64,000 bases of DNA from Pigmentiphaga sp. (GTDB lineage Bacteria; Pseudomonadota; Gammaproteobacteria; Burkholderiales; Burkholderiaceae_B), in the NCBI RefSeq assembly GCF_033795525.1, contig NZ_JARYGM010000001.1, positions 206,614 to 270,613 on the forward strand, in the 5' to 3' direction. Position numbers and translations under genes: made by a program. The notes beneath the pieces were generated by a model. That model saw only the letters and a list, made by a program, of their open reading frames with translations, was not told the DNA's origin and did no database searches. This document shows positions 467 through 47,254 of this stretch, in pieces (the stretch's first letter is position 1; each line of letters begins with the position of its first letter).

Positions 467-955
467 CTACCCGGCCGCGGCCAGGTCGGCGTAGTGCTGC
501 AGGCGGGCCAGCGCATAGCGCGCAGCCCGCTCGCGGACCTCGTTGCGTCCGCCGGTGAAGCGGCGCGTCTCGCTATACACCTTGGCCTCATTGTTGCGCT
601 CGAAGGCCCATGCAAAGCACTGCGTGCCGGCCGCGACGCCTGCCGCCCCGCCATCGGCCACCCCGGTGTTCGCAATCGCTGCATTAGCGCGGCTGCGAAG
701 CAGCGCGCCGCGGGCCATCGCGCGCGCCACCGGCTCGCTGGTGAGGTTATACGCTTTAAGAATCCTGGAGGGAACCCCCAACGCCTGCATTTTTGCTTCG
801 GGCGAGTAAGCCACGAAAGCGCAGTCCAGCAAAGCGCCCGCACCCTCGACGTCCGCCAGCATGGCTGCTATCAGCCCGGCGGTGCAGGATTCCGCGGTGG
901 CCAGCAACAGGCGGCGTTCCTGCATGTAGCGGGCGATGTGTTCGAGATTCTGCAC
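467..955 (-). CDS. pncC: CinA-family nicotinamide-nucleotide amidohydrolase (PncC-like)
   Basis: LLLATAESCTAGLIAAMLADVEGAGALLDCAFVAYSPEAKMQALGV matches the CinA C-terminal/PncC core (TAESCTGG...F.TYSN.AK). I trimmed the 229-aa ORF to GTG 955; ATG 925 is an alternative start. This gives about 162 aa, as in E. coli PncC. Confidence 0.75.
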   Translation of the reverse strand: MQNLEHIARYMQERRLLLATAESCTAGLIAAMLADVEGAGALLDCAFVAYSPEAKMQALGVPSRILKAYNLTSEPVARAMARGALLRSRANAAIANTGVADGGAAGVAAGTQCFAWAFERNNEAKVYSETRRFTGGRNEVRERAARYALARLQHYADLAAAG

Positions 956-1133
956 GCGCGGTCCCCGGTCGTGGCGATGACGCGCTTCAGCACGCGCCGT
1001 ACCCGGCGTGCCGGTTGCTGCGCTGCGCAAGGATGAGCAAATCTCTGGAAAGCAGTGTAAATCCTGCGCCTTCTGCCCGGGCATGCGCGACCAACCTCCC
1101 TCGCAACATGTCCCGATCCTCGTTCGGGCAGGC

Positions 1134-1148
1134 TGGCACAAGGCTTGC
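1134..1148 (+). promoter_or_regulatory. sigma54-type -24/-12 promoter candidate (TGGCAC-N5-TTGC)
   Basis: cTGGCACaaggcTTGCg is an exact match to the TGGCAC-N5-TTGC core. It lies 46 nt upstream of ATG 1194, in the correct orientation. Confidence 0.4.
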
Positions 1149-1193
1149 GATTGCACGCGTCCCCACTCGAACCATCCTTACTTGGAGGACCTC

Positions 1194-1457
1194 ATGCCTA
1201 CGCCTACCCCCCAGAAGCGCCCTCGAGGTTTTGCTGCCATGGACCCCCAGAAGCAGCGCGCCATTTCGGCAGAGGGCGGCCGGGCCGCACACCAGTCCGG
1301 CAACGCGCACGAATTCAACTCGGAAGAAGCCCGGGCCGCCGGGGCCTTGAGTCACGCCCATCGACGCCGCCGCGCGGCAGAAGCGCAAGCTCAGCAAGCC
1401 CAGGCCCAGGGCACCCCCCGGGAAGAACCGGTGCAGGCCAGCCCGGGCAGCTCGTGA
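1194..1457 (+). CDS. KGG-repeat general stress protein (YciG-like), 87 aa
   Basis: RGFAAMDPQKQRAISAEGGRAAHQSGNAHEFNSEEARAAG is the stress-induced KGG repeat motif. GGAGGA SD at 1185-1190. The 149-aa ORF was trimmed to ATG 1194. Confidence 0.8.
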   Translation: MPTPTPQKRPRGFAAMDPQKQRAISAEGGRAAHQSGNAHEFNSEEARAAGALSHAHRRRRAAEAQAQQAQAQGTPREEPVQASPGSS

Positions 1458-1465
1458 GCCCAAGC

Positions 1466-1492
1466 GCCCGGCTCGGCAACCGCCAGCCGGGC
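1466..1492. terminator. GC-rich hairpin between convergent genes
   Basis: gcccggct-N11-agccgggc forms an 8-bp stem between the KGG gene stop (1457) and the CBS gene stop (1505). No clear U tract. Confidence 0.3.
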
Positions 1493-1504
1493 CTATCCCG
1501 CGCG

Positions 1505-1936
1505 CTAGCGAAACAACTCGCCTGAAGCGCGCGCAGGCTCCGATATCCCCGCCAAGGTGTCGTCCGTGTCGCCGGCCTTGGTGGCCAAATCCCCCAACGA
1601 CACTACCCCGACCAACTCGTTGTTCTTGCCGAGGATGGGCATTCTGCGGATCTGTTCGTCGCGCATTTTGGCCTTGACCGTCTCGGCGTCTTCGTCTGCA
1701 TAGCACCAGCTCACATGGGCAGTCATCGCTTCGCGCACGCTGGCGGATGGCGATGCGCCTGCGGCTATGCAGCGTACCGCGATGTCGCGGTCGGTGACCA
1801 CGCCGATCAGGCGCCTGCCGTCGCAAACGGGCACCGCGCCGATATCCAGGTCGGCCATCAACTGTGCAGCGCGCTGTATCGACTCGTCGGCCGATAAGTA
1901 CGCCACGTCGCGGGTCATGATCTCTGCGATTTGCAT
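1505..1936 (-). CDS. CBS-domain pair protein (143 aa)
   Basis: MQIAEIMTRDVAYLSADESIQRAAQLMADLDIGAVPVCDGRRLIGVVTDRDI plus a second CBS repeat (MPILGKNNELVGVVSLGDL). AAGGAGAG SD precedes ATG 1936. The longer 186-aa ORF form was rejected. Confidence 0.85.
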   Translation of the reverse strand: MQIAEIMTRDVAYLSADESIQRAAQLMADLDIGAVPVCDGRRLIGVVTDRDIAVRCIAAGASPSASVREAMTAHVSWCYADEDAETVKAKMRDEQIRRMPILGKNNELVGVVSLGDLATKAGDTDDTLAGISEPARASGELFR

Positions 1937-1949
1937 GGGACTCTCCTTG

Positions 1950-1972
1950 AAAAAAAGCCGCAAATGCGGCTT
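1950..1972 (-). terminator. intrinsic-terminator-like hairpin plus U run in the CBS gene leader
   Basis: The minus strand reads AAGCCGC-AUUU-GCGGCUU followed by UUUUU, then immediately CAAGGAGAG and ATG. Confidence 0.55.
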
Positions 1973-1982
1973 GGGCGTGGGC

Positions 1983-1999
1983 AGCAACCGATATGCCCA
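1983..1999 (-). promoter_or_regulatory. sigma54-like -24/-12 promoter candidate
   Basis: The minus strand reads tGGGCATatcggTTGCt (GG-N10-GC spacing kept). The -12 C at 1984 puts the predicted +1 near 1972, 36 nt from ATG 1936. Confidence 0.35.
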
Positions 2000-2199
2000 T
2001 AGAGTCCCGCGCCCGCACAGGCCCAGAAGGCGACCTCGCAAGGGAAGGGAACGAGTCCACGGCAAACAAGCGCAGCAAAAGCCGGGCGAAAGGGAGCGGA
2101 AAGAAAAAGCGGGCGGGAACGAAACGTAGCCGGGCGGCTACTTTGAGATCTGCCCCGGAGGCGGACCGGATAGGCTAGCGCCTAAGCTAGGTATGCGAA

Positions 2200-2276
2200 T
2201 GGGGTGGCTGATGGGACTCGAACCCACGACAACCGGAATCACAATCCGGGACTCTACCAACTGAGCTACAGCCACC
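2200..2276 (-). tRNA. tRNA-His (anticodon GTG)
   Basis: The reverse complement is GGTGGCTGTAGCTCAGTTGGTAGAGTCCCGGATTGTGATTCCGG...GGTTCGAGTCCCATCAGCCACCCCA. It folds as a cloverleaf with anticodon loop TTGTGAT, the extra 5' G typical of tRNA-His and an encoded CCA. Confidence 0.95.
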
Positions 2277-2458
2277 ACGGTCAGCAATGCGTGCACTGCA
2301 AGGCGCAGGCACGAAAGAACGCCATTATAGCGAACTTTGCGGCCGCGTGCGCAACGCCCCGCCGGGGCGCTGCTACCCCCGGCTACCCCTGGGCGTCGCA
2401 ACCATATCCCGGTCATACGGCGTTGCTAGCTTCGTCGGCAGTCATCCAGGAGCCGCCG

Positions 2459-3490
2459 ATGAAGCTTACCCGTCTCAGTATCGCGACGTTCAACCTGTAC
2501 AACCTGAACGAGCCCGGCCGCCGCGTCTACACCGGCGAGGGCTGGAGCCAAGCCGAGTACCGCAAGAAAATCGACTGGACGGCCGGCCAGCTAACACTGC
2601 TCGATGCGGATGTATTCGGCTTTCAGGAATTGTGGCACAGGGATTCGCTTGCCCGTGCGTTGCAGGCGTCCGGCTTGGCCGGCACATACGACATGCTGGT
2701 ACCCGAAGACGCGGACGGTTCGCGGATCGTCTGCGCGGCCGTGGTCCGCAAGGGGCTGCTAGCCGGCGAGGCCGAATGGATCAGCGATTTTCCGGAGGCC
2801 TTCATGTTGCATTCGAGCGGGGACGACCCTCAGACGCCTCAGATTAGCGTCAATATCCGGGGGTTCTCCCGCCCCGTGTTGCATTTCACGATACAGCCGC
2901 GCGAGGATGGACCGCTGGTGCATGTTTATGTGTGCCATTTCAAATCCAAGGCCCCCACCCAGGTGTACAGAGAGGATTGGTACATCGACGCCAAATCCGC
3001 CTACGCGAAGCACGCCAAGAATCTGGGCGCGGCCCTCTCTACCATCCGCCGCACCGCCGAAGCGGCCGCGCTGCGCTTTTTGCTCAGCGAGCTGATGAAG
3101 GGCAACGACACGCCGGTAATCGTGCTGGGCGACATCAACGACGGCCAGCACAGCAACACCGCCAATATCCTCACCGATCAGCCCCGCTACCTGGTCGGGG
3201 ACTCCGAAGGAGGCGGCGACGTCGCGCTTTATACGGCGCAGACCCTGCAGGAATACCGGGACACGCGCGACGTGTACTACACCCACGTCTACCAGGACAT
3301 CCGGGAGTCACTCGATCACATCCTCGTCAGCCAGGAGTTCTACGACAATAGCCGCAAGCGCCTATGGATGTTCGACGGGCTGGTCATCAACAACGACCAT
3401 CTGGACTTCGACGACCACAAACGGCTAGGTGCCAACGACCATGGGATCGTCCGCGCCACGTTCAATTATCGTCCGAACAGCCAAAATTGA
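2459..3490 (+). CDS. endonuclease/exonuclease/phosphatase (EEP) family protein
   Basis: LSIATFNLYNLN..., ADVFGFQELW, VCHFKSK, VIVLGDINDG and DHILVS...NDHGIV are EEP catalytic motifs. AGGAG lies before ATG 2459. The upstream part of the 428-aa ORF overlaps the tRNA-His and was discarded. Confidence 0.8.
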   Translation: MKLTRLSIATFNLYNLNEPGRRVYTGEGWSQAEYRKKIDWTAGQLTLLDADVFGFQELWHRDSLARALQASGLAGTYDMLVPEDADGSRIVCAAVVRKGLLAGEAEWISDFPEAFMLHSSGDDPQTPQISVNIRGFSRPVLHFTIQPREDGPLVHVYVCHFKSKAPTQVYREDWYIDAKSAYAKHAKNLGAALSTIRRTAEAAALRFLLSELMKGNDTPVIVLGDINDGQHSNTANILTDQPRYLVGDSEGGGDVALYTAQTLQEYRDTRDVYYTHVYQDIRESLDHILVSQEFYDNSRKRLWMFDGLVINNDHLDFDDHKRLGANDHGIVRATFNYRPNSQN

Positions 3491-3553
3491 GCTGACGGCA
3501 CAAGCCGGGGGACCACGGTGCCAAGCCGCGGCCTCCGGCGATGCACAAAAGCA

Positions 3554-3582
3554 AAAAGCCCCTGCATGACAGGGGCTTTTTC
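3554..3582. terminator. bidirectional rho-independent terminator
   Basis: aaaaaGCCCCTGcatgaCAGGGGCttttt, with A/T runs on both sides. It sits between the EEP gene (+) and the csp gene (-). Confidence 0.75.
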
Positions 3583-3597
3583 TCGGCTGGGACCGCT

Positions 3598-3801
3598 TTA
3601 CAGCACGCGGATCTTCGAAGCCTGCGGGCCCTTGGGACCCTGGACGGCCTCGAAGCTGACCTTTTGGTTCTCGTACAGCGTCTTGCGCCCTTCCGCCTGG
3701 ATCTCGGAGAAATGAGCGAACAAATCCTTGCCTCCATCATCCGGCATGATGAAGCCGTATCCCTTGTCGTCGTTGAACCATTTAACGATGCCTGTGGCCA
3801 T
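3598..3801 (-). CDS. CspA-family cold-shock protein (67 aa)
   Basis: [34 protein letters not shown] carries the RNP1/RNP2 motifs. The ORF was trimmed to ATG 3801. Confidence 0.95.
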
Positions 3802-3934
3802 GATGCACTTCCTTCCTGAATATGTACTTGCCGCGAATACCACAAAACCGGAATCAAGGGTGGGCCGTGACCAATGGAGAGCCGACTTGCCGACCAAACC
3901 GCGTGTAGAACCCTAACCTGACACCTTGAAAATC

Positions 3935-3963
3935 ACTATGCGATGCAATGATCGCTTAGTCAA
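3935..3963 (-). promoter_or_regulatory. sigma70-type promoter candidate for the csp gene
   Basis: The minus strand reads TTGACT-17 nt-CATAGT. This would give a 5' UTR of about 125 nt, typical for cspA-type genes. Confidence 0.35.
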
Positions 3964-4183
3964 CTCGTTTTCGTTTCCGTCGGATACAACCTTATTACCC
4001 GAATACGACCGTTATTTGAATCGGGATTTTGCAAATATCGCCGGGTTAATGGCCAGATTAGGCAGGCTTGACTACAAAATGCGAAGCATAATGCGGCATA
4101 TCACCCACATAGTGGACAAAATCAACTATTTGCGCGAGGGTTTCCACGTAGATACTTGGATCTCAACCCTCTAAACCTATCGT

Positions 4184-4219
4184 TTTCCCGTATAAGGGAA
4201 ATACCTATAAAAATTTCCC
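4184..4219. promoter_or_regulatory. TTTCCC/GGGAAA repeat cluster (possible activator site)
   Basis: TTTCCCgtataaGGGAAA palindrome (4184-4201) plus a third TTTCCC (4214-4219). It lies in AT-rich DNA about 95-130 nt upstream of the -24 motif at 4314. Confidence 0.25.
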
Positions 4220-4313
4220 GACAGCCGGCGAACGGTCTAGAAGAAATTACAAGCCGATCGTCCCATATTTACATGGACAGGACAGCATAATGATTTTGGG
4301 TATGGTTCATCGC

Positions 4314-4327
4314 GGCACGCGAATTGC
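4314..4327 (+). promoter_or_regulatory. sigma54-like -24/-12 promoter candidate
   Basis: cGGCACGcgaaTTGCg matches GGCACG-N4-TTGC. It is 89 nt upstream of ATG 4416. The leader contains an 8-bp hairpin (4362-4369/4379-4386). Confidence 0.4.
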
Positions 4328-4415
4328 GGACGCATAAAGACGCGGTTTTCACGCCGCGGCAGGCCCCGCTTCATGGCTGCGGGGCCGAGCGAATGCGTCA
4401 AATAGGAGAAAGTTT

Positions 4416-4655
4416 ATGGATCAGCAGAAACAGCAGCCCGGTCAGACCCAACCCGGCCAAGGCCAGCAAAGCCCGCGGCAGAACGAGCAGCAGACCGGCA
4501 TGGACCAGCAGCAGGGTCAACGCGGTTCGCAGCAACGTCCGAACGTTCAGCCCGGACAGCAGAACCCTGGCCAGCAGCAACAGGAACAACAACAGCAGCG
4601 TGGCCAACAGCCCGGCCAACAGAACAAACAACAACAGCAAAAACCGAATCAGTAA
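4416..4655 (+). CDS. glutamine-rich low-complexity small protein (79 aa)
   Basis: TAGGAGAAAG SD 5 nt before the ATG. The protein is almost entirely Q/P/G/N, with no hydrophobic segment. Confidence 0.6.
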   Translation: MDQQKQQPGQTQPGQGQQSPRQNEQQTGMDQQQGQRGSQQRPNVQPGQQNPGQQQQEQQQQRGQQPGQQNKQQQQKPNQ

Positions 4656-4785
4656 CGGCTAGTCCGCAGCCGCCGGCCGTGCCCAGCCCCTCCAGGGCCA
4701 AGCCTGAAGTGCGAATAGTGCACCGCGCCGGCGGCGCTTCTACCAGCCTCGATCGCGCGCGGGGAACGCCCGGCACCGAGGACTA

Positions 4786-5043
4786 CTACCCTCTTTCCAG
4801 CTTGTCGATATAGCGCTTGGCCGCTCTTTCGGCGTACCGGTGAGCCTCGAACTCCGTGCCGAACACCTGGTCGTCGCCCAGATGCTGCTCGGCGGGCAGC
4901 GCGTGGAACTGTGCCGCGGGATCGAGCGAGATGGTGGCCAGTCCTTCGAACAACACCGTCATGCCGTCCCGGGGATGATTGACCGGGCGTGCCACAGTGC
5001 GGATGTAGTAGCCCTTGTAGAAGTCTCCTGCGCCGTCGGACAT
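4786..5043 (-). CDS. hypothetical protein (85 aa)
   Basis: GGAGGG SD before ATG 5043. The 134-aa ORF was trimmed. No family recognised. Confidence 0.45.
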   Translation of the reverse strand: MSDGAGDFYKGYYIRTVARPVNHPRDGMTVLFEGLATISLDPAAQFHALPAEQHLGDDQVFGTEFEAHRYAERAAKRYIDKLERG

Positions 5044-5195
5044 AGCACCCTCCTGTAGACAATACATGCGTGAGGCAAGGGGATGACCCAGAAAGTTCAA
5101 CGTCACTGCCAAGGGTATCCGTCCGATATACCGATTTCTCTTAGGAATATCACTTGCTGAACCGCGGTCTGAACAAGAACACTCCGGCAACCCGC

Positions 5196-6734
5196 ATGAC
5201 TGGTACGTACTCCGATGAAATCTGGTGGAAAAGCGCGGTGGTATATCAGATCTATCCGCGCTCCTTTGCCGACTCCAACGGCGACGGTGTGGGCGACATC
5301 CCGGGCATACTGGCGCACCTGGACCACATCTGCAGACTGGGCGCCGATACGGTATGGGTGTCGCCGGTATTCAAGTCGCCCATGGCCGATGCGGGCTACG
5401 ACATCAGCGACTATTGCGATATCGATCCCCTCTTCGGGACGCTGGACGATGTCCAGCGCCTGATCGACGAAGCACATGCACGCGGCCTGCGCCTGCTGCT
5501 CGACTTCGTACCCAACCACACGTCCGATCGCCATCCCTGGTTTATCGAATCGAGGTCGTCGCGCGCGAGCCCCAAGCGCGACTGGTACATCTGGCGCGAC
5601 GAACCGAACGACTGGCGCGCCGCGCTCGGAGCCGGCAGCGCCTGGACCTGGGATGAGAAGACCGGCCAGTACTACCTGCATTTTTTTCTGCCGCAGCAAC
5701 CCGACCTCAACTGGCGCAACCCGGAAGTAGTGGAAGCCATGCATGGCGTGCTGCGCTTCTGGCTGGACCGGGGTGTCGACGGTTTTCGTATCGACGTAGC
5801 GCACTGCACCGGCAAGGACCCCACCTTCGCCGACCACCCTCGCTGCCTGGCTGGGGAAGCGCTGGTCGACTTCAACGACCAGCCATACAGCCACGAAGTA
5901 CTGCGCGGCATACGGCGGCTGGTCGATAGCTACCCCGGCGACCGGGTGCTCGTGGGCGAAGTCAACATCCGCTCGACGGCAAGCGTGCTCCAGTACTACG
6001 GCGCGGGCGACGAACTGCACATGTCGTTCAACTTCCCGCCGCTGGACGCCCCCTGGGATCCCATCGTCTTTCGCACGTGCATACGCGAGGTGGACACCCT
6101 CATGCGGCCGGCAGATGCCTGGCCCACCTGGGTGCTGTCGAACCACGACAACGTGCGGCATCGCACGCGTTATAACGGTTCGCTGCGGCGCGCACGGGCG
6201 GCGGCGATCCTGCTGCTGTCGCTGCGAGGCACGCCCTTCCTGTTCCAGGGTGAGGAACTGGGACTGGAGGACGCCCGCATCGACCCGGACCGGCGCGTCG
6301 ACCCGGGCGGCCGCGATGGCTGCCGGGCGCCGCTGCCGTGGACCGAGCAGCCGCCGCATGGCTGGAACGGCGCCCCGCCCTGGCTACCGTTCCCCCCGAA
6401 CCCAGGTCAGCATTCGGCCGAGCGGCAATGGGCCGACTCCGGATCCATCTTCCACCTGTACCGGCATGCGCTGGAGCTCCGCAGGGCAAGTCCGGCACTG
6501 CGGCTGGGCGACTGGGAGGAAATCGATTCCCCGCCCGAAATCCTGGCCTTCCGGCGCCGCTACGGCGACGACGTCCGGCTGGTCTGCGTGAACTTCGCCG
6601 ACCGCGAACTGCAATTCACGCCTCCGGGCAAATGGCGCGCTGCCCTGTACAGCGAGGGCGGGCCGGCGGCGGGAACTCGCTTCCCCGGCAAGCTGGAACG
6701 CGAACAGGCTGTAATCCTCGAACCGGAGACATGA
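5196..6734 (+). CDS. GH13 alpha-glucosidase (oligo-1,6-glucosidase/trehalose-6-P hydrolase-like)
   Basis: WWKSAVVYQIYPRSFADSNGDGVGDIPG, the four GH13 regions LLLDFVPNHTS, GVDGFRIDVAH, VGEVN and LSNHDN. Start set at ATG 5196. Confidence 0.9.
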   Translation: MTGTYSDEIWWKSAVVYQIYPRSFADSNGDGVGDIPGILAHLDHICRLGADTVWVSPVFKSPMADAGYDISDYCDIDPLFGTLDDVQRLIDEAHARGLRLLLDFVPNHTSDRHPWFIESRSSRASPKRDWYIWRDEPNDWRAALGAGSAWTWDEKTGQYYLHFFLPQQPDLNWRNPEVVEAMHGVLRFWLDRGVDGFRIDVAHCTGKDPTFADHPRCLAGEALVDFNDQPYSHEVLRGIRRLVDSYPGDRVLVGEVNIRSTASVLQYYGAGDELHMSFNFPPLDAPWDPIVFRTCIREVDTLMRPADAWPTWVLSNHDNVRHRTRYNGSLRRARAAAILLLSLRGTPFLFQGEELGLEDARIDPDRRVDPGGRDGCRAPLPWTEQPPHGWNGAPPWLPFPPNPGQHSAERQWADSGSIFHLYRHALELRRASPALRLGDWEEIDSPPEILAFRRRYGDDVRLVCVNFADRELQFTPPGKWRAALYSEGGPAAGTRFPGKLEREQAVILEPET

Positions 6735-6737
6735 CTC

Positions 6738-8360
6738 ATGCTGCCACTTTGGTATCGAAACGCCATCATCTACCAGGTCGACCCCAGCCTCTTCCGTGAC
6801 GCCAACGGCGACGGACGAGGAGACCTGCAAGGCATCACCAACCGGCTGGAGTACCTGCGCGGCCTGGGCGTCACGTGCCTGTGGCTCATGCCCTTCTACA
6901 CGTCGCCCTTCCATGACTGGGGCTACGACGTGGCAGACCACCTGTCGGTGGATCCCCGCTTCGGCGCCCTGCCTGATGTAGTCACGCTGCTCGAAAAGGC
7001 CGAGGAACTGGGCCTGCGCGTCATCGTGGATCTCGTCGTGCAGCACACTTCGGACCGCCATCCCTGGTTCCAGGCAGCGCGCAGCGACCGGAACTCCCGC
7101 TACCGGGACTACTTCATCTGGGCCGACAAGCCCGAACCCACGGAGGTCAAGCCCATTTTTCCCACGGTCGAAGACAGCGTGTGGACCTGGGACGAAAAGG
7201 CCGGCCAATACTACCGGCACGTGTTCTATTCGCACGAACCGGACTTGAACCTGGGCAACCCCGAGGTCCGCGTCGAGATCGAACGCATCATGGACTTCTG
7301 GCTCAGGCTGGGCGTATCGGGTTTCCGCGTGGACGCCGCCTCGCACATGATAGAGAGCGCCAAGCAGGGCGACCCCACGGACGGCGGCTTCTGGCTGCTC
7401 AACCAAATGCGCCGCTTCGTTTCCCGCCGCAGGGCCGATGCCGTGCTGCTGGGTGAAGTGGACGTGCCGCCGGCCGAATACGCCCAATACTTCGGGCAAG
7501 GGGACCGGCTCACGCTGGTGCTGAACTTCTGGCTGAACAATTACCTCTATCTGTCGCTGGTACGCCAGAGCGCCGAGCCGCTGGCGCGCGCATTGGCCGA
7601 ACAGCCCGTACCGCCAGAAACGGCGCAATATGCGCTCTGGCTGCGCAATCATGACGAACTCGACCTCGAGCGCCTGAGCGAGTCAGAGCGCGAAGAAGTC
7701 ATGGCCTGCTTCGCCCCGGACCCGGAGATGCGCATCTACAACCGCGGCATCCGGCGCCGGCTCCCGCCCATGCTGGGTGGCGACCCGCGCAAGCTTGCCC
7801 TGGTGCATGCGGTGCTGTTCTCGCTGCCTGGCACGCCCATCCTGCGCTATGGCGAAGAAATCGGGATGGGGGACGATCTCTCCCTGCCCGAGCGGCTCGC
7901 GGTGCGTACGGCCATGCAGTGGTCGGACGAACACAATGCGGGGTTCTCGACGGCCGATCCGGACAAGCTCGCGGTGCCGCTGATTCGTACCGGTCCCTAC
8001 GGATATCCCAAGATCAACGTATATGCGCAATCGCTGCATGACGATTCGCTGCTGACCAAGACCGGCAAGATGATCCGCGCCAGGCTGGGCCTGCACGAGA
8101 TCGGCAGCGGCCGATGCCGGGCGGCTGACGTCAATTGCCCGCAGGTACTGGCGCTCAGGCACGAACTGGACGGCGTCGCGGTCGTGACTTTCGCCAATCT
8201 TGGCCCCGACGACGTGGAATTCGAAATCCACGACGAGGACTGCCAGCACATGACCGACGTCATGGCCGACGGCCCCTACGATCCACCCGAGGGCCATCCG
8301 GCCCATATCCGCCTGCGTGGCTACGGCTACCGCTGGCTGCGCCCGCGCGACAAGCTGTAG
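6738..8360 (+). CDS. GH13 alpha-amylase-family protein (trehalose-synthase/amylosucrase-like)
   Basis: WYRNAIIYQVDPSLFRDANGDGRGDLQG, IVDLVVQHTS, GVSGFRVDAASH, LGEVD and LRNHDELD. The start is 3 nt after the preceding stop. Confidence 0.85.
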   Translation: MLPLWYRNAIIYQVDPSLFRDANGDGRGDLQGITNRLEYLRGLGVTCLWLMPFYTSPFHDWGYDVADHLSVDPRFGALPDVVTLLEKAEELGLRVIVDLVVQHTSDRHPWFQAARSDRNSRYRDYFIWADKPEPTEVKPIFPTVEDSVWTWDEKAGQYYRHVFYSHEPDLNLGNPEVRVEIERIMDFWLRLGVSGFRVDAASHMIESAKQGDPTDGGFWLLNQMRRFVSRRRADAVLLGEVDVPPAEYAQYFGQGDRLTLVLNFWLNNYLYLSLVRQSAEPLARALAEQPVPPETAQYALWLRNHDELDLERLSESEREEVMACFAPDPEMRIYNRGIRRRLPPMLGGDPRKLALVHAVLFSLPGTPILRYGEEIGMGDDLSLPERLAVRTAMQWSDEHNAGFSTADPDKLAVPLIRTGPYGYPKINVYAQSLHDDSLLTKTGKMIRARLGLHEIGSGRCRAADVNCPQVLALRHELDGVAVVTFANLGPDDVEFEIHDEDCQHMTDVMADGPYDPPEGHPAHIRLRGYGYRWLRPRDKL

Positions 8361-10500: not shown

Positions 10501-10681
10501 GCCGGTTTCGAGCACGGTTCGTGCCAAGCCGGCCCTGCCTGCGCGCCTATGCGGACGACGTCGCGGGGCGATGAAAAAACTACCCGCCCGCCGCGCAGAA
10601 CCTTCCCGCGAGCTTGGCGCCTGCCGCCCTATCGCCGACAATGCCCGAGGGTTTCCCCACCCCATGATCCGAGGAGCAACC

Positions 10682-15004: not shown

Positions 15005-15927
15005 CGGCGGTGATTGACCAGCACCAGGCCGGCAACGACCAAGGCCACGGCAAGCAGAAAGAGCGGACCGATCGGCTCGCGCAGGATCAACGCCGCAAAG
15101 GCCACGCCGAACAGCGGCGACATGGAGGTGCCGGCTTGCAGCGTGCTGGCCGGATAGGCCGCGAGCAGACGCAACCATAGCAGGAAGGTGATCGCCGCGA
15201 TCCAGACGGTCTGGTAGGCCATCGCCATGGCTGGAGCAAACGCCACGGCCCCCATCGACTCGCCCGCCACCGCGGCGGCGCCCAGGCCCACGATCGCGGA
15301 TACCCCATGGTGATACAGCAGCACCTTCTCGGGCGCCACGGTAGCCAGGCTCGACGCCTTGATCGCCAGAGTGGTTGCTGCCCATAACATAGCGGCGGCG
15401 ATCATCATGAGGTCACCCCATAGCGCGTAAGGTGAGGTCGCCGCGCGGGGCACGCCCATTACGATCGCCGTGCCGCAGAAGGACAGGAACAAGCCCATCC
15501 ACTGAGGCCAGCGAAGCCGCTCGGCGGGCAGCAGCCAGGTCGCGCCCAGCGCGACGAAGAACGGCGCGGTATACAGGAACAGGGACGTCCGGCTCGCATC
15601 GGTCCATTGCAGGCCGACATAGATCAACACGAACTCGCCAGCGAACAAAAGCGCGGAGAAAATTCCCAGCCACAGCGAACCGTCGCGGGCCAACAATTTG
15701 CCCCGCCCCGTTAACACGCAATAGACCAGCAGCAGCAGGCCGGCCCCCGCGGAACGTATGCCCATCTGCAGCAAGGGCGGAAAAGCAGGCAGCGCGATCT
15801 TGACGGAAACCTGCTGCGCGCCCCAACTGGCGCAAAGCAGAACGAGCATCGCAATGGCGGGGACATCCAGGGAGCGTTTGGACACGGCGGGAGGACTGTT
15901 GTTGTTCTCAGGCGGAGTTTCGCACAT
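15001..15927 (-). CDS. EamA/DMT-family transporter
   Basis: About ten TM helices in two EamA repeats. The start is uncertain (ATG 15927 chosen; 16020 possible). The stop shares CTAG with the iclR stop. Confidence 0.75.
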   Translation of the reverse strand: MCETPPENNNSPPAVSKRSLDVPAIAMLVLLCASWGAQQVSVKIALPAFPPLLQMGIRSAGAGLLLLVYCVLTGRGKLLARDGSLWLGIFSALLFAGEFVLIYVGLQWTDASRTSLFLYTAPFFVALGATWLLPAERLRWPQWMGLFLSFCGTAIVMGVPRAATSPYALWGDLMMIAAAMLWAATTLAIKASSLATVAPEKVLLYHHGVSAIVGLGAAAVAGESMGAVAFAPAMAMAYQTVWIAAITFLLWLRLLAAYPASTLQAGTSMSPLFGVAFAALILREPIGPLFLLAVALVVAGLVLVNHRR

Positions 15928-15968
15928 GCCCGCCGCCACGGCCGGGCAAGAGCAAGAGGCGTGACCTT

Positions 15969-15983
15969 GGGCATGGGACTTGC
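15969..15983 (+). promoter_or_regulatory. sigma54-like -24/-12 promoter candidate
   Basis: tGGGCATgggacTTGCc has the same TGGGCAT-N5-TTGC form as the site at 1983-1999. It is 36 nt upstream of ATG 16019. Confidence 0.35.
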
Positions 15984-16018
15984 CGCCCGAACGCTGGTAT
16001 CGATACAAGGAGACCGTC

Positions 16019-16225
16019 ATGACGTCCCGACCTGCACCGCCAGCCGATGAAATGGTCAATCCCGAGGAAGGTGAGGCGCCTCCCGCCCCCGCCCCCAAAG
16101 AGGCGACCGAACTGCGCAACCCCGGTCTTGCCGGCTCGCCGGAATCGCCCGCTCCGCCGCCCGACGCCGACCGCTTGAAAGACGAGGGCAGCGATCCGAA
16201 CAAGACCGGCGCGCGGCGGGGCTGA
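16019..16225 (+). CDS. candidate small proline/glutamate-rich acidic protein (68 aa)
   Basis: AAGGAG (16007-16012) lies 6 nt before the ATG. Third-position G+C is about 75% by my count. A -24/-12-like motif lies upstream. No homolog recognised. Confidence 0.35.
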   Translation: MTSRPAPPADEMVNPEEGEAPPAPAPKEATELRNPGLAGSPESPAPPPDADRLKDEGSDPNKTGARRG

Positions 16226-16251
16226 TGGCCCCGTGTCGAGGGAAGACGACG

Positions 16252-17757
16252 CTAGCGGCGCTGCTCCACCGCCGTGGCGGCGACGAGCCGTACGGCTGCC
16301 AGATCCGCGCCGGTCAGGACCCCGCCGCGCCCCAGCAGGCGGCCGAATTCCCAATTGGACAGCCCCAGCTCCGGTTTGCCGAGCGCATACTGGCCGTCGA
16401 CCCAACGGGTGAAGCCGTCGCCCACGAAAGGAGCGTCGATGCGGGCGCGAAAACGACGGTGCGCCTCGCGATCCTCAGCGATCAAGCTGGCGACGAAACG
16501 CGGACTATGCCGATTGAACAGCGCGATCGCCTCGTCCACCGACTCGACCACCGCCAGCGTGAGTTCCGGCGTTTCCTCCCACTCCCATTCCTGGCCCAGC
16601 CGCTCTTCAGGCAGGGGGGTGGCGTAAGGCTCTTCGACGTCGCCCGCCGCGCGCCGCACGATGGTGGGGCGCTGGAACAGTTCCGACGGCACGAAGGGCT
16701 CGGCCGAGGGCGTGACGTGCAACCGCGGCGTGCCGCGTAGCGCACAGCCCGCCTCGTCGATGGCGCGCAGAAACCTCGGCACCAGGTCCTCCACGCGGCT
16801 ACGCACGATGCAACAGACGTTCAAGGTATTACAGACCTTGCGATCGAGAGAATGGCGCACCGAACGCTCGAACCGCTCCGCGTCCGCGCTAGGATCGGCG
16901 ACCAACCATGCCCCACCCGTCCCGTGGGCGCTGACCGGCACGCCGGCCTGGCGCGCGACGCTGCTCAATTGCATGACTGCCTCGCCGGATCCCCGCGCGA
17001 CCGCCAAAGCGAGACGGCTGTCGCTGAACATGGCCCAGCCGGCAGCGCGATCCTCGAGCTCGACGAGGCTCACGGCGCCGGACGGCAGGCCTGCCGCGGC
17101 CAGGGCCGGCTCCAGCGCGTGGCGCAGGAGCGCGGACGCGGTCCCTAGCGCGTCACTGCCGATGCGCAATACGGCGGCATTGCCGGTGGACAGCACACCG
17201 CAGGCATCGACGAGCACATTGGGACGTCCCTCGAACACGAAACCGATCACGCCCAACGGAACACGGACCACCTCCACCTGCCAATCGCCGTGGTCGACGC
17301 GATCGACCACGCGGCGATCCGCGGCCGCCAGCCCGGGCCACACGCGCAGTCCGTCTATCATCGCGGCGCGCATCTTGTCCGAGACCCGGAGCCGGGTGGT
17401 CGAGCGGCCCCGTTGCATCGCCCGCCGCACGTCCTCGTCGTTGGCCGCCATCACCCGTTCCCAGACGTCGTTACGGGCCAGCGCATCCGCGAACACATGG
17501 TAGAACCGGTCCACCGAACCGGGCGGAACCTGGGCCAGCGCCTCGAAGGCCGCCCGGGCCTCCGCCACCCGGGCTCGCACGACCTCGTCCACGCGCCCCG
17601 GAATGCGCAGCAATGCGCCGGTTTCCTGAACCACTAGCAGCCGGTCGCCAGGACCGAAGGCGTTCGCCAGCGCCTCGCCCACCCGCGTGTACCGGTTTCC
17701 ACCATAGGGAATCATCATCCCCGGTTCCAGACGATCCAGGGTTCCGTGCTCATTCAT
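16252..17757 (-). CDS. gamma-glutamyl-phosphate reductase (ProA)-like aldehyde dehydrogenase with N-terminal extension
   Basis: PLGVIGFVFEGRPNVLVDA, LRIGSDALGT, KVCNTLNVCCIV (catalytic Cys context) and SPRFVASLIAED resemble ProA. It carries about 55 extra N-terminal residues. GGAGAG SD before ATG 17757. Confidence 0.7.
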   Translation of the reverse strand: MNEHGTLDRLEPGMMIPYGGNRYTRVGEALANAFGPGDRLLVVQETGALLRIPGRVDEVVRARVAEARAAFEALAQVPPGSVDRFYHVFADALARNDVWERVMAANDEDVRRAMQRGRSTTRLRVSDKMRAAMIDGLRVWPGLAAADRRVVDRVDHGDWQVEVVRVPLGVIGFVFEGRPNVLVDACGVLSTGNAAVLRIGSDALGTASALLRHALEPALAAAGLPSGAVSLVELEDRAAGWAMFSDSRLALAVARGSGEAVMQLSSVARQAGVPVSAHGTGGAWLVADPSADAERFERSVRHSLDRKVCNTLNVCCIVRSRVEDLVPRFLRAIDEAGCALRGTPRLHVTPSAEPFVPSELFQRPTIVRRAAGDVEEPYATPLPEERLGQEWEWEETPELTLAVVESVDEAIALFNRHSPRFVASLIAEDREAHRRFRARIDAPFVGDGFTRWVDGQYALGKPELGLSNWEFGRLLGRGGVLTGADLAAVRLVAATAVEQRR

Positions 17758-20779: not shown

Positions 20780-21382
20780 ATGCGGGTAAGCCGAGCACAA
20801 GCCGAACACAACCGCGCCAGGGTCATCGATACGGCGAGCCATCTTTTTCGCGAGCGTGGCCTCAACGGCATCGGCGTCGCCGATCTCATGAAAGCCGCAG
20901 GCCTCACCCATGGCGGCTTCTATCGACAATTCGACTCCAAGGAAGACCTGGTGGTGGCGGCCTGCCGCCACAGCGTCGCCCAAAGCCGCGAAGCTTGGAG
21001 CAAAGTACTGACGAAAGCGGCAAACAGCCGCCTTGCCGCCCTGGTCCGCTTTTACCTGTCGCGCTCCCATCGCGATCAACCGGGCGTGGGCTGCCCCTTC
21101 GCGGCCCTGGGGCCGGATGCCGCCCGCGCTGGCAACGCCGTGCGAGAGGCCTTTGCAGAAGGCATCGAGCAGCGCGTGGCCATGCTGGGCGAACTCCTGC
21201 GCTCCCGCGATGCAGGAACGCGGCGAAAACAAGCCATCGCGATGCTGTCCACCATGGTAGGCGCATTGCTGCTCTCGCGGGCGGCCGGGGACGAAGCCCT
21301 TTCCCGGGAGATCCTGGATGCCGCGGCCGATGAACTCATCACCGGCCACACCGCCGCCCCGGACACGGGAACCCATCCATGA
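20780..21382 (+). CDS. TetR/AcrR-family transcriptional regulator
   Basis: MRVSRAQAEHNRARVIDTASHLFRERGLNGIGVADLMKAAGLTHGGFYRQFDSKEDL. GGAGGC SD present. The longer form starting at 20750 is less likely. Confidence 0.85.
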   Translation: MRVSRAQAEHNRARVIDTASHLFRERGLNGIGVADLMKAAGLTHGGFYRQFDSKEDLVVAACRHSVAQSREAWSKVLTKAANSRLAALVRFYLSRSHRDQPGVGCPFAALGPDAARAGNAVREAFAEGIEQRVAMLGELLRSRDAGTRRKQAIAMLSTMVGALLLSRAAGDEALSREILDAAADELITGHTAAPDTGTHP

Positions 21383-25453: not shown

Positions 25454-25942
25454 CTATCGGAATCTGTCATAGCGCCGGCTGATCGTCTCCGCAACACACA
25501 CAGGCTTGGTCGAACCCTCGCGCTCGATGCGAGACTCCCAAGTCAGCTCGACGACGCTGACGTCCGGCCGGTCGGGCATGGACGGTAGCCGCTGCATGTC
25601 CTTCAGCCTGATGCGGGCGCGAACCCTGCTGTCCCGAGGAACCGGCGCGGGGAACCGGACCTTGTTGAGCCCATAGTTGATGCTCATGTCGGCGGGCGGC
25701 AGCGCCAGGGCCTGGCGCATCAAATCCGGCAAGAGAGAAAGCGTCAGGTAACCGTGCGCAATCGTGGTGCCAAACGCCGACTCCTGTCGGGCCCGCTCCT
25801 GATCCACGTGTATCCATTGATGGTCCCCCGTAGCTTGCGCGAACAGGTCTATGCGTTGCTGGTCCACGCGCACCCACGGGCTGACGGCAATTTCTTTTCC
25901 GATCTGTTCATGCAGTTCATCGAGCGTCCGGATGGTCCGCAT
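25454..25942 (-). CDS. MaoC-like (R-specific) enoyl-CoA hydratase/dehydratase
   Basis: VDQQRIDLFAQATGDHQWIHVDQERARQESAFGTTIAHGYLTLSLL is the MaoC hotdog motif. Confidence 0.85.
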   Translation of the reverse strand: MRTIRTLDELHEQIGKEIAVSPWVRVDQQRIDLFAQATGDHQWIHVDQERARQESAFGTTIAHGYLTLSLLPDLMRQALALPPADMSINYGLNKVRFPAPVPRDSRVRARIRLKDMQRLPSMPDRPDVSVVELTWESRIEREGSTKPVCVAETISRRYDRFR

Positions 25943-34213: not shown

Positions 34214-34662
34214 AGCTCGTTCTCCGCACGGGACGGCAGCGCCACCGTCCGGTCGACGTCGAATACCGGATAAGGCTGACCCTCGTCGGGGCGATGGACA
34301 CGCATGCGTACGCGCGTGCCTATCCTGAGTTCCGAAGGCGGGATACCTTCCACTCGGCTCATCAGCCGGAATCCTTCGTCCATGTCGATGAGCGAGACGT
34401 TCAGCGGCACTTCTCCGCGGTAATGAACCACGGTGGTGGCATAGACCGTGCCGGTTCCGGCCGAGACTTCCCACACCAGGCCGCAGGCGCCCGTGCCGGG
34501 AGCCGCTACGCGGGGATAGAACACAGCGCGGCCCGTCTCGGGGTCGCGCTGGAACACCAGCTTCCCTTGTTCGAGAAACGCCAGGTAGCGTCCGTATGGC
34601 GATTCTTCGGCCAGGCGATTCAGGTCGCGATAGGCGCAATCGCCTGCTTCGGGCCGGCTCAT
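34210..34662 (-). CDS. DUF35 OB-fold/zinc-ribbon acyl-CoA-associated protein
   Basis: About 150 aa. FLEQGKLVFQRDPETGRAVFYPR...YATTVVHY...VSLIDMDEGFRLMSRV is typical of DUF35_N/OB_aCoA_assoc. Translationally coupled to the thiolase. Confidence 0.75.
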   Translation of the reverse strand: MSRPEAGDCAYRDLNRLAEESPYGRYLAFLEQGKLVFQRDPETGRAVFYPRVAAPGTGACGLVWEVSAGTGTVYATTVVHYRGEVPLNVSLIDMDEGFRLMSRVEGIPPSELRIGTRVRMRVHRPDEGQPYPVFDVDRTVALPSRAENEL

Positions 34663-41949: not shown

Positions 41950-43512
41950 ATGCTGACGCGATCGCGTGGCAAGCGCGCCATTTACCTGATCCACCGATGG
42001 ACCGGCATCGCCGCCTGCCTGCTGATGGTGGCTTGGTTCGCCAGCGGCATGGTCATGCTGTTCGTAGGCTACCCCAAGCTCACGCCTTGGGAACGGCTGG
42101 GACACTTGCCCGACCTGCCGGCTGGTCCATGCTGGGCGCCGGTGGAACGGGCGCTGGCCGCAAGCGCCGATCCGGCCGCCGTCACCGAAATCATGCTGAC
42201 AACGGTGCGCGGCCGGCCGACTCTGCGCCTGCGGGAAGGCGACGGCCGCTATCTCGCCGTCGATGCGCGGACGGCCTCGCCCATGCCCCCCGCGGATGCA
42301 GGCGACGCGGTCGAGAGCGCACGCGCCTATCTGCCCGGCGTAGGCGCCCGCTACCTCGGCTCGGTAGACGAGGACCGGTGGACGCATTCAGCCACGCTGA
42401 ATCCCCATCGTCCGCTGCACAAGGTCCAGATGAACGACCCTGCCAGCACGCTACTTTATGTGTCATCGGCCACGGGGGAAGTCGTGCTGGACGCGCCCCG
42501 CGCGCAACGCCTGTGGAACTACGCCGGCGCATGGCTCCATTGGCTCTATATGTTCCGAGACCGGCCCGTCGACCCGGGATGGAGCTGGCTGGTCATCTCG
42601 CTCTCCGCAATGGGGACCATGGTGTCGGTGACCGGCACGGCAGCCGGTCTTTGGCGCTGGCGTTTCCGCGGCACCTACAAGTCGGGCGCCCGCTCGCCTT
42701 ATCGCGACGCTTGGCTGAGATGGCACCACATCGCCGGCCTTGTGTTTGCGGGGATCACCTTTGCGTGGATCTTCAGCGGACTGATGTCGATGAACCCGGC
42801 CGGCCTGTTCCACCCCTCGGGCCTGCGGCCGGACCTCGCCGCCTATCGCGGTGCGACGCCCGGCCAGTCGCGGCCCACGCTGGACCTGACTGAGGTTACC
42901 GCGGCCTTGTGGGAGCAAGGGTTCGAGCCGCGCGAAATCGAATGGCGGGTATTGGGGGGCCGGCCCTACTTGTTGGCCCGCGACGGCGCCGGCCACACCC
43001 GCCTGGTCACCGGCGATGCCGGCGCAATGAGAATTCTTGGACAATGGTCGCCACCCCAGCTGAAATACGCCGCCACGCGCTTGCTTGCCGCGCCCATCGC
43101 CGCCTATCGCCGGCTCGACGACTACGATGCCTACTACTATGGCCGGGAGCCGGAAGCCATGATGGGCGCGAGCGAACGCCGGCTGCCAGTCTGGCGTGCG
43201 CAGTTTGCAGACGCCAGCAAGACCTGGGTCTATCTGGATCCGTATACCGGCGACCCGGCATTGAGCGTGGACGGGCGGCAGCGCCTGGGCCGATGGCTAT
43301 TCAATTTCCTTCACAGCTGGGACCTGCCGCCCATGCTCGCGGCCGGCGTCTGGCGGGAGGCGGTGCTGATCCTGATGAGTCTGGGCGGCCTGGCCTTGAG
43401 CGTGACCGGGACTGTCATCGCGTACCGGCGGGTACGGATGGCGGCGCGCCGCCCTGGGCGGGGCCGGACTAGCCTTGCGGCGCCGCCGGCACGGTATCCA
43501 CCGCCGCAATAA
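41950..43512 (+). CDS. PepSY-associated TM-helix protein (PiuB-like)
   Basis: IYLIHRWTGIAACLLMVAWFASGMVML, repeated HxW motifs (LHWLYMF, LRWHHIAG, NFLHSWD) and four TM segments. Confidence 0.85.
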   Translation: MLTRSRGKRAIYLIHRWTGIAACLLMVAWFASGMVMLFVGYPKLTPWERLGHLPDLPAGPCWAPVERALAASADPAAVTEIMLTTVRGRPTLRLREGDGRYLAVDARTASPMPPADAGDAVESARAYLPGVGARYLGSVDEDRWTHSATLNPHRPLHKVQMNDPASTLLYVSSATGEVVLDAPRAQRLWNYAGAWLHWLYMFRDRPVDPGWSWLVISLSAMGTMVSVTGTAAGLWRWRFRGTYKSGARSPYRDAWLRWHHIAGLVFAGITFAWIFSGLMSMNPAGLFHPSGLRPDLAAYRGATPGQSRPTLDLTEVTAALWEQGFEPREIEWRVLGGRPYLLARDGAGHTRLVTGDAGAMRILGQWSPPQLKYAATRLLAAPIAAYRRLDDYDAYYYGREPEAMMGASERRLPVWRAQFADASKTWVYLDPYTGDPALSVDGRQRLGRWLFNFLHSWDLPPMLAAGVWREAVLILMSLGGLALSVTGTVIAYRRVRMAARRPGRGRTSLAAPPARYPPPQ

Positions 43513-43981
43513 GGCCGTCCTCGGTGTGATGCACCACGAGGATGCGCGCGCTTTCCATCCGGGCCAGCAGTTCGGCCGACACGCCGAAGCCCGTGGCCAA
43601 CCGCTCTGGCTTCATGGGAGCCGGGGCGCTGCGCCGGTCCAGGCCGCGAAAGCGCCGCCAGTTGTACCAGGCCCAGGCGAATAGGATCAGCGCGTTGATG
43701 ACGGCCAGCGCGGCATACACAGCCAAGGTCCGCATCGTCGGGAATGCGCCGGACCAGAACGGCGCGTCCAGCCCCGCCATCCGCCCTTCAACGACTGCGA
43801 TCATGCCGCGCGCGAACAGATAGAGGAACACGATCCACGCGATCGCCGTCAATACGACGTCCAGAAGGTAGCGCAGCCGCGTCCGCTTGGTCGTGATGAC
43901 CATGGTCGAGGCGTCGATCGCCACCCGGGGCTCGCCGGCGGCCGGCGCATCCAGCTTGGTGGGAGGAGGAACGAGACTCAT
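43469..43981 (-). CDS. pgaD: poly-beta-1,6-N-acetylglucosamine biosynthesis protein PgaD
   Basis: Two TM helices plus a WYNWRRF motif. ATGA-coupled to pgaC. The 3' end overlaps the PepSY gene by 44 nt. Confidence 0.8.
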   Translation of the reverse strand: MSLVPPPTKLDAPAAGEPRVAIDASTMVITTKRTRLRYLLDVVLTAIAWIVFLYLFARGMIAVVEGRMAGLDAPFWSGAFPTMRTLAVYAALAVINALILFAWAWYNWRRFRGLDRRSAPAPMKPERLATGFGVSAELLARMESARILVVHHTEDGLIAAVDTVPAAPQG

Positions 43982-47243: not shown

Positions 47244-47254
47244 TGCTGCTTCTC

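Follow-up and report, generated by a model that had tools for sequence, protein, structure and literature searches.

Putative sigma-54-type promoters upstream of a cluster of stress-type genes in Pigmentiphaga

The window analyzed here, a 64,000-nucleotide stretch of the genome of a soil bacterium, Pigmentiphaga sp. (assembly GCF_033795525.1, contig NZ_JARYGM010000001.1, positions 206,614 to 270,613), carries within its first 16 kb a 16-bp element that stands shortly before six transcription units and is conserved upstream of their orthologs. By exact protein match the window also maps to contig JASWJH010000010.1 of assembly GCA_034285035.1. The genes encode a KGG-repeat protein, a CBS-pair protein, a Q-rich protein, a pair of GH13 enzymes, a type IB topoisomerase and a P/E-rich protein, and a seventh unit, encoding a DUF6496 protein, is intact in sister genomes; three of the genes are expressed in a close relative. 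We infer that the elements are probably -24/-12 promoters for RNA polymerase carrying sigma-54 (RpoN). The units probably make up one stress or dormancy regulon, as suggested by gene content, clustering and co-appearance in RNA data.

Placement, conservation and anatomy of the element

A first-pass annotation of the window had listed four intergenic matches to GGCAY-N5-TTGC, each oriented with the next gene, and all four were present. A scan with an approximate sigma-54 weight matrix gave six sites before genes (11.2-15.8 bits), two of which were absent from that list, as was a fifth pattern match:

1134..1149, + strand: putative sigma-54-type promoter of the KGG gene, TGGCACaaggcTTGCG, 15.8 bits (pattern match at 1135-1148, +)
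1983..1998, - strand: putative sigma-54-type promoter of the CBS-pair gene, GGGCATatcggTTGCT, 13.6 bits (pattern match at 1997-1984, -)
4313..4328, + strand: putative sigma-54-type promoter of the Q-rich gene, CGGCACGcgaaTTGCG, 11.2 bits (pattern match at 4314-4327, +)
5143..5158, + strand: candidate sigma-54-type promoter of the GH13 pair, AGGAATatcacTTGCT, 12.1 bits, with A at -23; absent from the first-pass list
10511..10526, - strand: putative sigma-54-type promoter of the topoisomerase IB gene, TGGCACgaaccGTGCT, 15.6 bits; absent from the first-pass list
15969..15984, + strand: putative sigma-54-type promoter of the P/E-rich open reading frame (ORF), GGGCATgggacTTGCC, 11.9 bits (pattern match at 15970-15983, +)
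25771-25758, - strand: fifth pattern match, inside a coding sequence; absent from the first-pass list

The four matches first listed end 45, 47, 88 and 35 nt before their ATG codons, which have strong Shine-Dalgarno sequences. Placement was examined on 59 self-trained gene calls, of which 58 had enough upstream sequence. Six of these 58 genes had a site of at least 11 bits on the coding strand within 130 nt upstream. In shuffled upstream regions the mean was 0.44 genes with a site and the maximum 4 in 2000 trials, so that six was never reached, and a site of this strength was found in 5 of 640 intragenic control windows. Judged by the placement shuffles, the earlier estimate of about 0.1 chance sites was of the right order of magnitude. 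All six promoter-placed sites lay within the first 16 kb. Apart from a DUF6496 remnant described below, the remaining 48 kb contained no promoter-placed site, nor did 18.5 kb of flanking sequence (8.5 kb before the window, in L081, and 10 kb after it, in L093; 82.5 kb contiguous altogether). A scan against Rfam identified no RNA family at the motif sites, the only hits being three tRNAs and a sub-threshold cspA leader.

The motif was kept upstream of the orthologs of all four genes in the first-pass list. Alignments were made with L001-L004, the syntenic loci recovered with the CBS protein as query from four Pigmentiphaga-type genomes (Pigmentiphaga sp., P. kullae, P. daeguensis and a Burkholderiales metagenome-assembled genome, MAG). 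Across these and the window (five genomes), GGCAC..GG.TTGCGA was the one stretch without variation in the interval from the divergent CinA gene to the ribosome-binding site of the KGG gene. The KGG motif was also retained behind three different upstream genes, those of the window type, of P. humi and of P. soli, where the gene occupies an unrelated locus and the motif reads TGGCACGGCGGTTGCT (18.5 bits). Upstream of the CBS-pair gene, GGG[C/A]A[T/C]..GGTTGCT was conserved in L001-L004 although the DNA further upstream was unrelated. The Q-rich promoter alignment showed GCGG[C/A]AC...TTGCGG conserved in L001-L003, and before the P/E-rich ORF GGCA[T/C]GG.ACTTGC was kept in a metagenome contig (L084) in which both flanks had diverged. 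For the topoisomerase gene, TGGCACGAA.C.TGCTCG and the following ATGGAyTTC were conserved in P. kullae (L083) and L084. When the intergenic region was aligned with L001-L003, the GH13 site coincided with the block of highest conservation; the case for this site is less strong than for the others, as its surroundings are fairly conserved throughout and it is not followed by a Shine-Dalgarno sequence.

Pooling yielded 27 distinct sites from seven gene families, in every one of which GG and GC were exactly 10 nt apart. G-25, G-24, T-14, G-13 and C-12 were invariant (27/27 each), as were Y-21 and R-20 (27/27 each), and A-22 (26/27) and T-15 (24/27) were nearly so; position -11 was T in 16 sites and G in 9. 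The pooled sites agree with the sigma-54 consensus, YTGGCACGrNNNTTGCW, and the invariant positions are exactly those contacted by sigma-54. The motif is asymmetric, always co-oriented with the gene, and at a distance that allows only a short leader. A sigma-70 consensus scan of positions 900-5300 found only the promoter of a csp gene, and the orthologous alignments revealed no conservation at the spacing of a -10 box or of an extracytoplasmic function (ECF) sigma promoter (16-18 nt after GGnAC). The -24/-12 reading, already proposed in the first-pass annotation, is thus supported by conservation footprints, by the invariant sigma-54 contacts, by the lack of a rival promoter and by further similar genes.

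Genes behind the element

The genes that follow the six sites, and one RNA structure at the start of a predicted transcript, were as follows:

1194..1457, + strand: KGG-repeat (YciG/GsiB-type) stress protein, 87 aa; Pfam PF10685
1505..1936, - strand: stand-alone CBS-pair protein, 143 aa; Pfam PF00571, 4e-26
1948..1972, - strand: terminator-like hairpin AAGCCGC-AUUU-GCGGCUU followed by U7, at the extreme 5' end of the predicted CBS mRNA and before its Shine-Dalgarno sequence
4416..4655, + strand: Gln/Gly/Pro-rich (Q-rich) protein, 79 aa; no Pfam family
5196..8360, + strand: two GH13 genes (Pfam PF00128), encoding an alpha-glucosidase-like protein of 512 aa and a trehalose-synthase (TreS)-like protein of 540 aa
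9436..10500, - strand: bacterial type IB topoisomerase, 354 aa; Pfam Top1B_N_bact and Topoisom_I
16019..16225, + strand: Pro/Glu-rich (P/E-rich) protein, 68 aa; orphan gene between aldehyde dehydrogenase and EamA genes

For the KGG gene, C(-12) at 1148 places the predicted +1 near 1160 and gives a leader of 34 nt. The KGG repeat was recognized at 32.2 bits (PF10685 cut-off 20.4). The public call of this gene uses an internal ATG that lies 15 codons too late (window 1194-1238) and yields 72 aa; we prefer the 87-aa product because the orthologs are 84-86 aa long, the N-terminus is conserved and GGAGG precedes 1194. The link between KGG gene and motif looks specific to the genus Pigmentiphaga, since Ramlibacter KGG genes were without the -24/-12 motif and a metagenome scan with the KGG protein returned four loci, three with readable upstream sequence and none of these with the motif.

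The CBS-pair gene has C(-12) at 1984, a predicted +1 at 1972 and a leader of 36 nt. The leader hairpin (stem 1972-1955, -12.4 kcal/mol, z -2.25) was conserved in L001-L004 in both its GCCGC/GCGGC stem and its U-run, and may serve as an mRNA stabilizer, an attenuator, a binding site for Hfq or S1, or a block to read-through. The DNA upstream of the gene holds a tRNA-His in the window and a divergent gene with a LexA box in the sister genomes. This box, TACTGTATGTATATACAGTA, is perfect and lies at about 5860-5880 of L001-L004; the window is without it and has in its place the tRNA-His and a gene of the endonuclease/exonuclease/phosphatase family.

The CBS protein is 88-90% identical in Pigmentiphaga sp., P. 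kullae, P. daeguensis and the Burkholderiales MAG. Among 79 loci encoding its relatives, nine had a site of at least 11 bits upstream (0.57 expected). Besides the four Pigmentiphaga-type loci and Verticiella, where the site is weak, these were four loci from Gemmatimonadota/Longimicrobiales MAGs. One of the latter, the Longimicrobiales MAG locus L044 (4715-6438), combines a CBS-pair gene carrying a 13.9-bit -24/-12 site with a divergent gene for a 357-aa enhancer-binding protein. This activator consists of an AAA+ sigma-54 interaction domain and a helix-turn-helix only, with no sensor domain, a PspF-like build. The arrangement raises the idea that CBS protein and activator form a feedback pair at this locus.

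The predicted +1 of the Q-rich gene lies near 4339, and its 77-nt leader opens with a hairpin (4341-4358). We regard this ORF as truly coding on the + strand because substitutions concentrate at third codon positions (35 vs 15 and 11) and indels are in frame. The GH13 site ends 38 nt before the first GH13 gene, with a predicted leader of 27 nt. The second GH13 protein aligned over its full length with TIGR02456 (treS_nterm) at 519 bits, under the 678-bit cut-off. For the topoisomerase gene, C(-12) at 10512 sets +1 at 10500, which is the A of the ATG, and a leaderless mRNA is therefore predicted. Gene calls gave the identical start ATG in three genomes, and in all three the GC stood 11-12 nt before it; the predicted +1 coincided with the A in both the window and L084, and preceded it by a single base in P. 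kullae. We know of no sigma-54-dependent leaderless transcript that has been described.

The P/E-rich gene has a predicted +1 near 15995 and a leader of 24 nt. The ORF is 72% identical to a 68-aa ORF in L084 and is known only from these two sources; a homology search of 5.8 billion proteins returned only itself. P. kullae and P. humi do not have it, and their copies of the flanking genes abut, with only 7 nt between them. ORF and promoter together correspond to an insertion of ~370 bp in opposite orientation (window 15880-16252).

The DUF6496 gene constitutes the seventh unit. Its motif, GGGCAT/AGGCAC-N5-TTGCTG, ends 31 nt before the ATG in L001-L004, and the protein, 167 aa and Lys/Ala-rich, is intact in these four sister genomes (L001 8246-8795). 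In the genome of the window the promoter survives ~0.5 kb before window position 1, followed by a deletion remnant (L081 12240-12440, about 0.2-0.5 kb before the window) in which the start codon and two thirds of the gene are gone and the last third is left.

The products had been described as small disordered proteins, which holds for part of the set. The KGG (Gly 8.0%, GRAVY -1.18), Q-rich (12.7%, -2.61), P/E-rich (8.8%, -1.24) and DUF6496 (6.6%, -1.19) proteins all have more than 6% Gly and strongly negative hydropathy, the defining traits of hydrophilins, with the grand average of hydropathy (GRAVY) standing in for the original hydrophilicity index. The set also includes folded proteins: the GH13/TreS-like pair, topoisomerase IB and the CBS-pair protein, an ordinary folded CBS pair that is not hydrophilin-like (GRAVY -0.04).

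A Csp protein, of a type that the first-pass annotation counts among general stress genes, did not prove to belong, since its gene has a promoter of another kind and a cspA-type leader:

3963-3935, - strand: sigma-70-like csp promoter, TTGACT-17-CATAGT; csp gene and leader at 3551-3963

The leader scored 64-71 bits against the Rfam cspA thermoregulator (gathering score 78), with E about 1e-14 in L081 and L002. The intergenic region between csp and the Q-rich gene is AT-rich at 4170-4290 and contains overlapping GGGAA/TTCCC inverted repeats, and its conservation exceeds that of the surrounding coding genes. Further into the window, four co-oriented genes at 43469-49450 (- strand) look like a pgaABCD-type poly-N-acetylglucosamine operon (translations judged by eye), with a glycosyltransferase followed downstream by a small membrane protein and preceded by deacetylase-like and large porin-like proteins. 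Three intragenic -24/-12 matches, at 25757-25772 (-), 44186-44201 (-, in the pgaC-like gene) and 34437-34452 (+), scored 11.4-14.7 bits. These and a further intragenic hit at 21255-21270 are probably due to chance and were set aside; intragenic sigma-54 sites are reportedly known in E. coli.

Transcripts, activators and competing explanations

RNA runs holding the window sequence itself were not found. Two low-depth RNA-seq runs from one P. kullae-like organism gave eight contigs in a 6-kb stretch, five of them on the Q-rich, KGG and DUF6496 genes, the other three being short and located elsewhere. Those on the KGG gene break off 27 and 18 nt ahead of its ATG, at points 10 and 19 nt into the predicted transcript, and no contig from these runs crosses the motif. 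The genes are thus real and expressed, and the data are compatible with the predicted start, while no proof of it. Metatranscriptomes had even, DNA-like coverage with bubbles from strains or single-nucleotide polymorphisms (SNPs) and so gave no start sites; a contig break at L002 8783 was considered as a transcript end and rejected, being such a SNP bubble. In two soil metatranscriptomes, L002 7998-8156 reached a unitig depth of 2,400-8,000, compared with 70-240 on either side. This peak lies inside a 101-aa ORF just outside the window start, has no Rfam match, and may represent a stable RNA fragment or else sequence shared with an abundant organism.

As noted in the first-pass annotation, the window contains no gene for an enhancer-binding protein: neither a GAFTGA-type loop nor an ESELFGH signature was found. 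This negative result, like that of the upstream-site search described below, weakens the sigma-54 assignment without excluding it, because activator genes commonly lie at a distance and certain activators do not need to bind DNA. One sequence, TGTAAATCCTGC, is conserved upstream of KGG and absent from P. humi and P. soli.

Several observations weigh against the assignment to sigma-54. The raw count of GGCAY-N5-TTGC in the window was 5 against 1.87 expected, and 5 or more were seen in 6 of 100 shuffles, which is not significant; the matrix likewise showed no excess over the whole window (19 hits of at least 10 bits vs 19.3 expected). The count is therefore at chance level and the signal consists in placement before genes. 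The pattern had been picked after the sites had been seen, and the matrix is our own approximation of the known consensus, none of the published ones having been used. Position -23, usually C, is A in 8 of the 27 sites (C in 19). The hairpin and U-run just after the predicted CBS start look awkward for a productive promoter. The P. kullae-like RNA runs exist only as assembled contigs, in which expression is visible and start sites are unresolvable, and one metatranscriptome contig (X15) extends 54 nt beyond the predicted KGG start, past the motif, although DNA carry-over is likely here. Activator signatures were not found in the 18.5 kb of flanks either. The search for a shared upstream activator sequence that the first-pass annotation had proposed was also negative: 8-10-mers with one mismatch, compared across the promoter families, returned GC-rich noise, and 11-mers compared across the three KGG contexts gave no common upstream word.

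The alternative that survives best accepts the sites as true sigma-54 promoters and gives each unit its own activator and signal, so that the clustering within 17 kb would reflect gene neighborhood only. The failure to find a shared upstream activator sequence fits this explanation, as do the heterogeneity of the set, in which topoisomerase IB and GH13 enzymes stand beside small hydrophilic proteins, and the A at -23, which sets some sites apart. On the other hand, the gene content has a coherent stress theme, with hydrophilin-like products from four of the seven units and a TreS-like enzyme in a fifth; transcripts of the Q-rich, KGG and DUF6496 genes appeared together in the same low-depth runs; and the sites form a tight cluster, outside which the 82 kb contain no others. 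We consider separate control a live but minority possibility.

A distinctly improbable alternative makes the 16-mer an operator for a DNA-binding regulator of another kind, with transcription from a weak sigma-70-family promoter nearby and only a coincidental likeness to -24/-12 promoters. Such an operator could accommodate the A at -23 in 8 of 27 sites, the missing activator site and activator gene, and the metatranscriptome contig that reaches past the KGG motif. It would leave unexplained that the invariant positions are precisely GG-N10-GC together with A-22, Y-21, R-20 and T-14, that the element is asymmetric, co-oriented with its gene and at short-leader distance, that no -35/-10 pair is conserved around it, and that it accompanies the KGG gene into unrelated contexts.

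It is very unlikely that an ECF-type sigma factor, for instance an RpoE- or EcfG-like one, uses the element as a GGAAC/GGAAT-like -35 box. Several orthologous sites do read GGAAC or GGAAT, and KGG and CBS genes occur in alphaproteobacterial EcfG regulons; most sites, however, are GGCAC or GGCAT, the TTGC follows at a fixed 5-nt spacing rather than 16-17 nt, and the ECF reading of the variants was rejected for want of a conserved -10 box. Chance matches in GC-rich DNA are the least credible account, since the chance-level whole-window counts of pattern and matrix and the intragenic position of 5 of the 11 best matrix hits are outweighed by a placement count reached in none of 2000 shuffles and by comparative data, every orthologous alignment showing an island of conservation at the motif.

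Proposed mechanism, related systems and significance

If the elements are sigma-54 promoters, E-sigma54 would be held on GG(-24)/GC(-12) as a closed complex that cannot start alone, until an AAA+ enhancer-binding protein encoded elsewhere in the genome opens it by ATP hydrolysis. The genes would be tightly off until the signal arrives and then strongly induced. Starts about 12 nt past the GC would leave short leaders with strong ribosome-binding sites; two of the predicted leaders (CBS and Q-rich) would open with a stem-loop, and the topoisomerase IB mRNA would have no leader. Six or more transcription units of the regulon would lie in the first 16 kb, namely KGG, CBS-pair, Q-rich, the pair of GH13/TreS-like genes, topoisomerase IB and P/E-rich; DUF6496 would be a seventh. 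The four hydrophilin-like proteins, the TreS-like enzyme and the CBS sensor module suggest starvation, osmotic stress or drying as the signal, and the set would do the job that RpoS, sigma-B or EcfG regulons do elsewhere. A bolder reading, less probable than not, is that Pigmentiphaga runs a general-stress or drying-tolerance programme, topoisomerase IB included, through sigma-54 and one dedicated activator in place of RpoS, sigma-B or EcfG, an activator that might not require a fixed upstream site, given that no such site is conserved, with one leaderless member and with a related CBS arrangement perhaps present in Gemmatimonadota.

Sigma-54 regulons usually concern nitrogen, flagella, the cell envelope and specific catabolic routes, whereas textbooks place KGG-type and other small hydrophilic stress proteins under the control of stress factors of the sigma-70 family. 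KGG and CBS proteins, trehalose enzymes and hydrophilic proteins are the cargo of RpoS (yciGFE, encoding YciG, in E. coli), sigma-B (gsiB in Bacillus subtilis) and EcfG (Alphaproteobacteria), and are made in stationary phase, osmotic stress or drying. The Pigmentiphaga set matches these regulons in cargo; however, they use sigma-70-family -35/-10 promoters, while only the -24/-12 element is conserved here, and sigma-54 would add an obligatory ATP-dependent activator and thus a control logic unlike theirs.

Among sigma-54 systems, one of the closest is the PspF-controlled phage-shock regulon of enterobacteria (pspABCDE, pspG), which is likewise small, encodes small stress proteins and is tightly off until stress. 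PspF has no sensor domain and is controlled in trans, and the activator beside the CBS gene in L044 is of the same build. The psp genes differ in having defined upstream PspF sites and membrane-stress products, whereas the Pigmentiphaga set has no detectable upstream site and soluble hydrophilic products. In Myxococcus xanthus, sigma-54 reportedly drives entry into a resistant dormant state, trehalose metabolism included; that deltaproteobacterium uses a multi-activator cascade and forms true spores, and Pigmentiphaga gives no sign of differentiation. In the literature searches, no paper came up that connects RpoN with KGG, DUF6496 or hydrophilin genes.

A relative in the same family, the Alcaligenaceae, offers a lead on the activator. 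Bordetella has rpoN and sigma-54 activators, and B. pertussis has two of the latter, one of which, BP2158, has a regulon that is not known (preprint, PMC11722255). BP2158 is more abundant in the Bvg-minus (persistence) mode, and a conserved small RNA linked to starvation represses it (PMC11722255). No link of BP2158 to KGG, CBS or DUF6496 genes has been reported, and by analogy we regard it as a candidate counterpart of the missing activator, a lead and not evidence.

As a kind of system, we infer a new sigma-54 regulon with unusual cargo. If this is correct, a stress or dormancy gene set would join the sigma-54 repertoire, three orphan hydrophilic proteins (Q-rich, P/E-rich and DUF6496) would gain a regulatory context, and Alcaligenaceae sigma-54 activators of unknown function, such as BP2158, would have a target set to be matched with. 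The tight off-state of sigma-54 promoters would fit proteins needed only on entry into drying or starvation.

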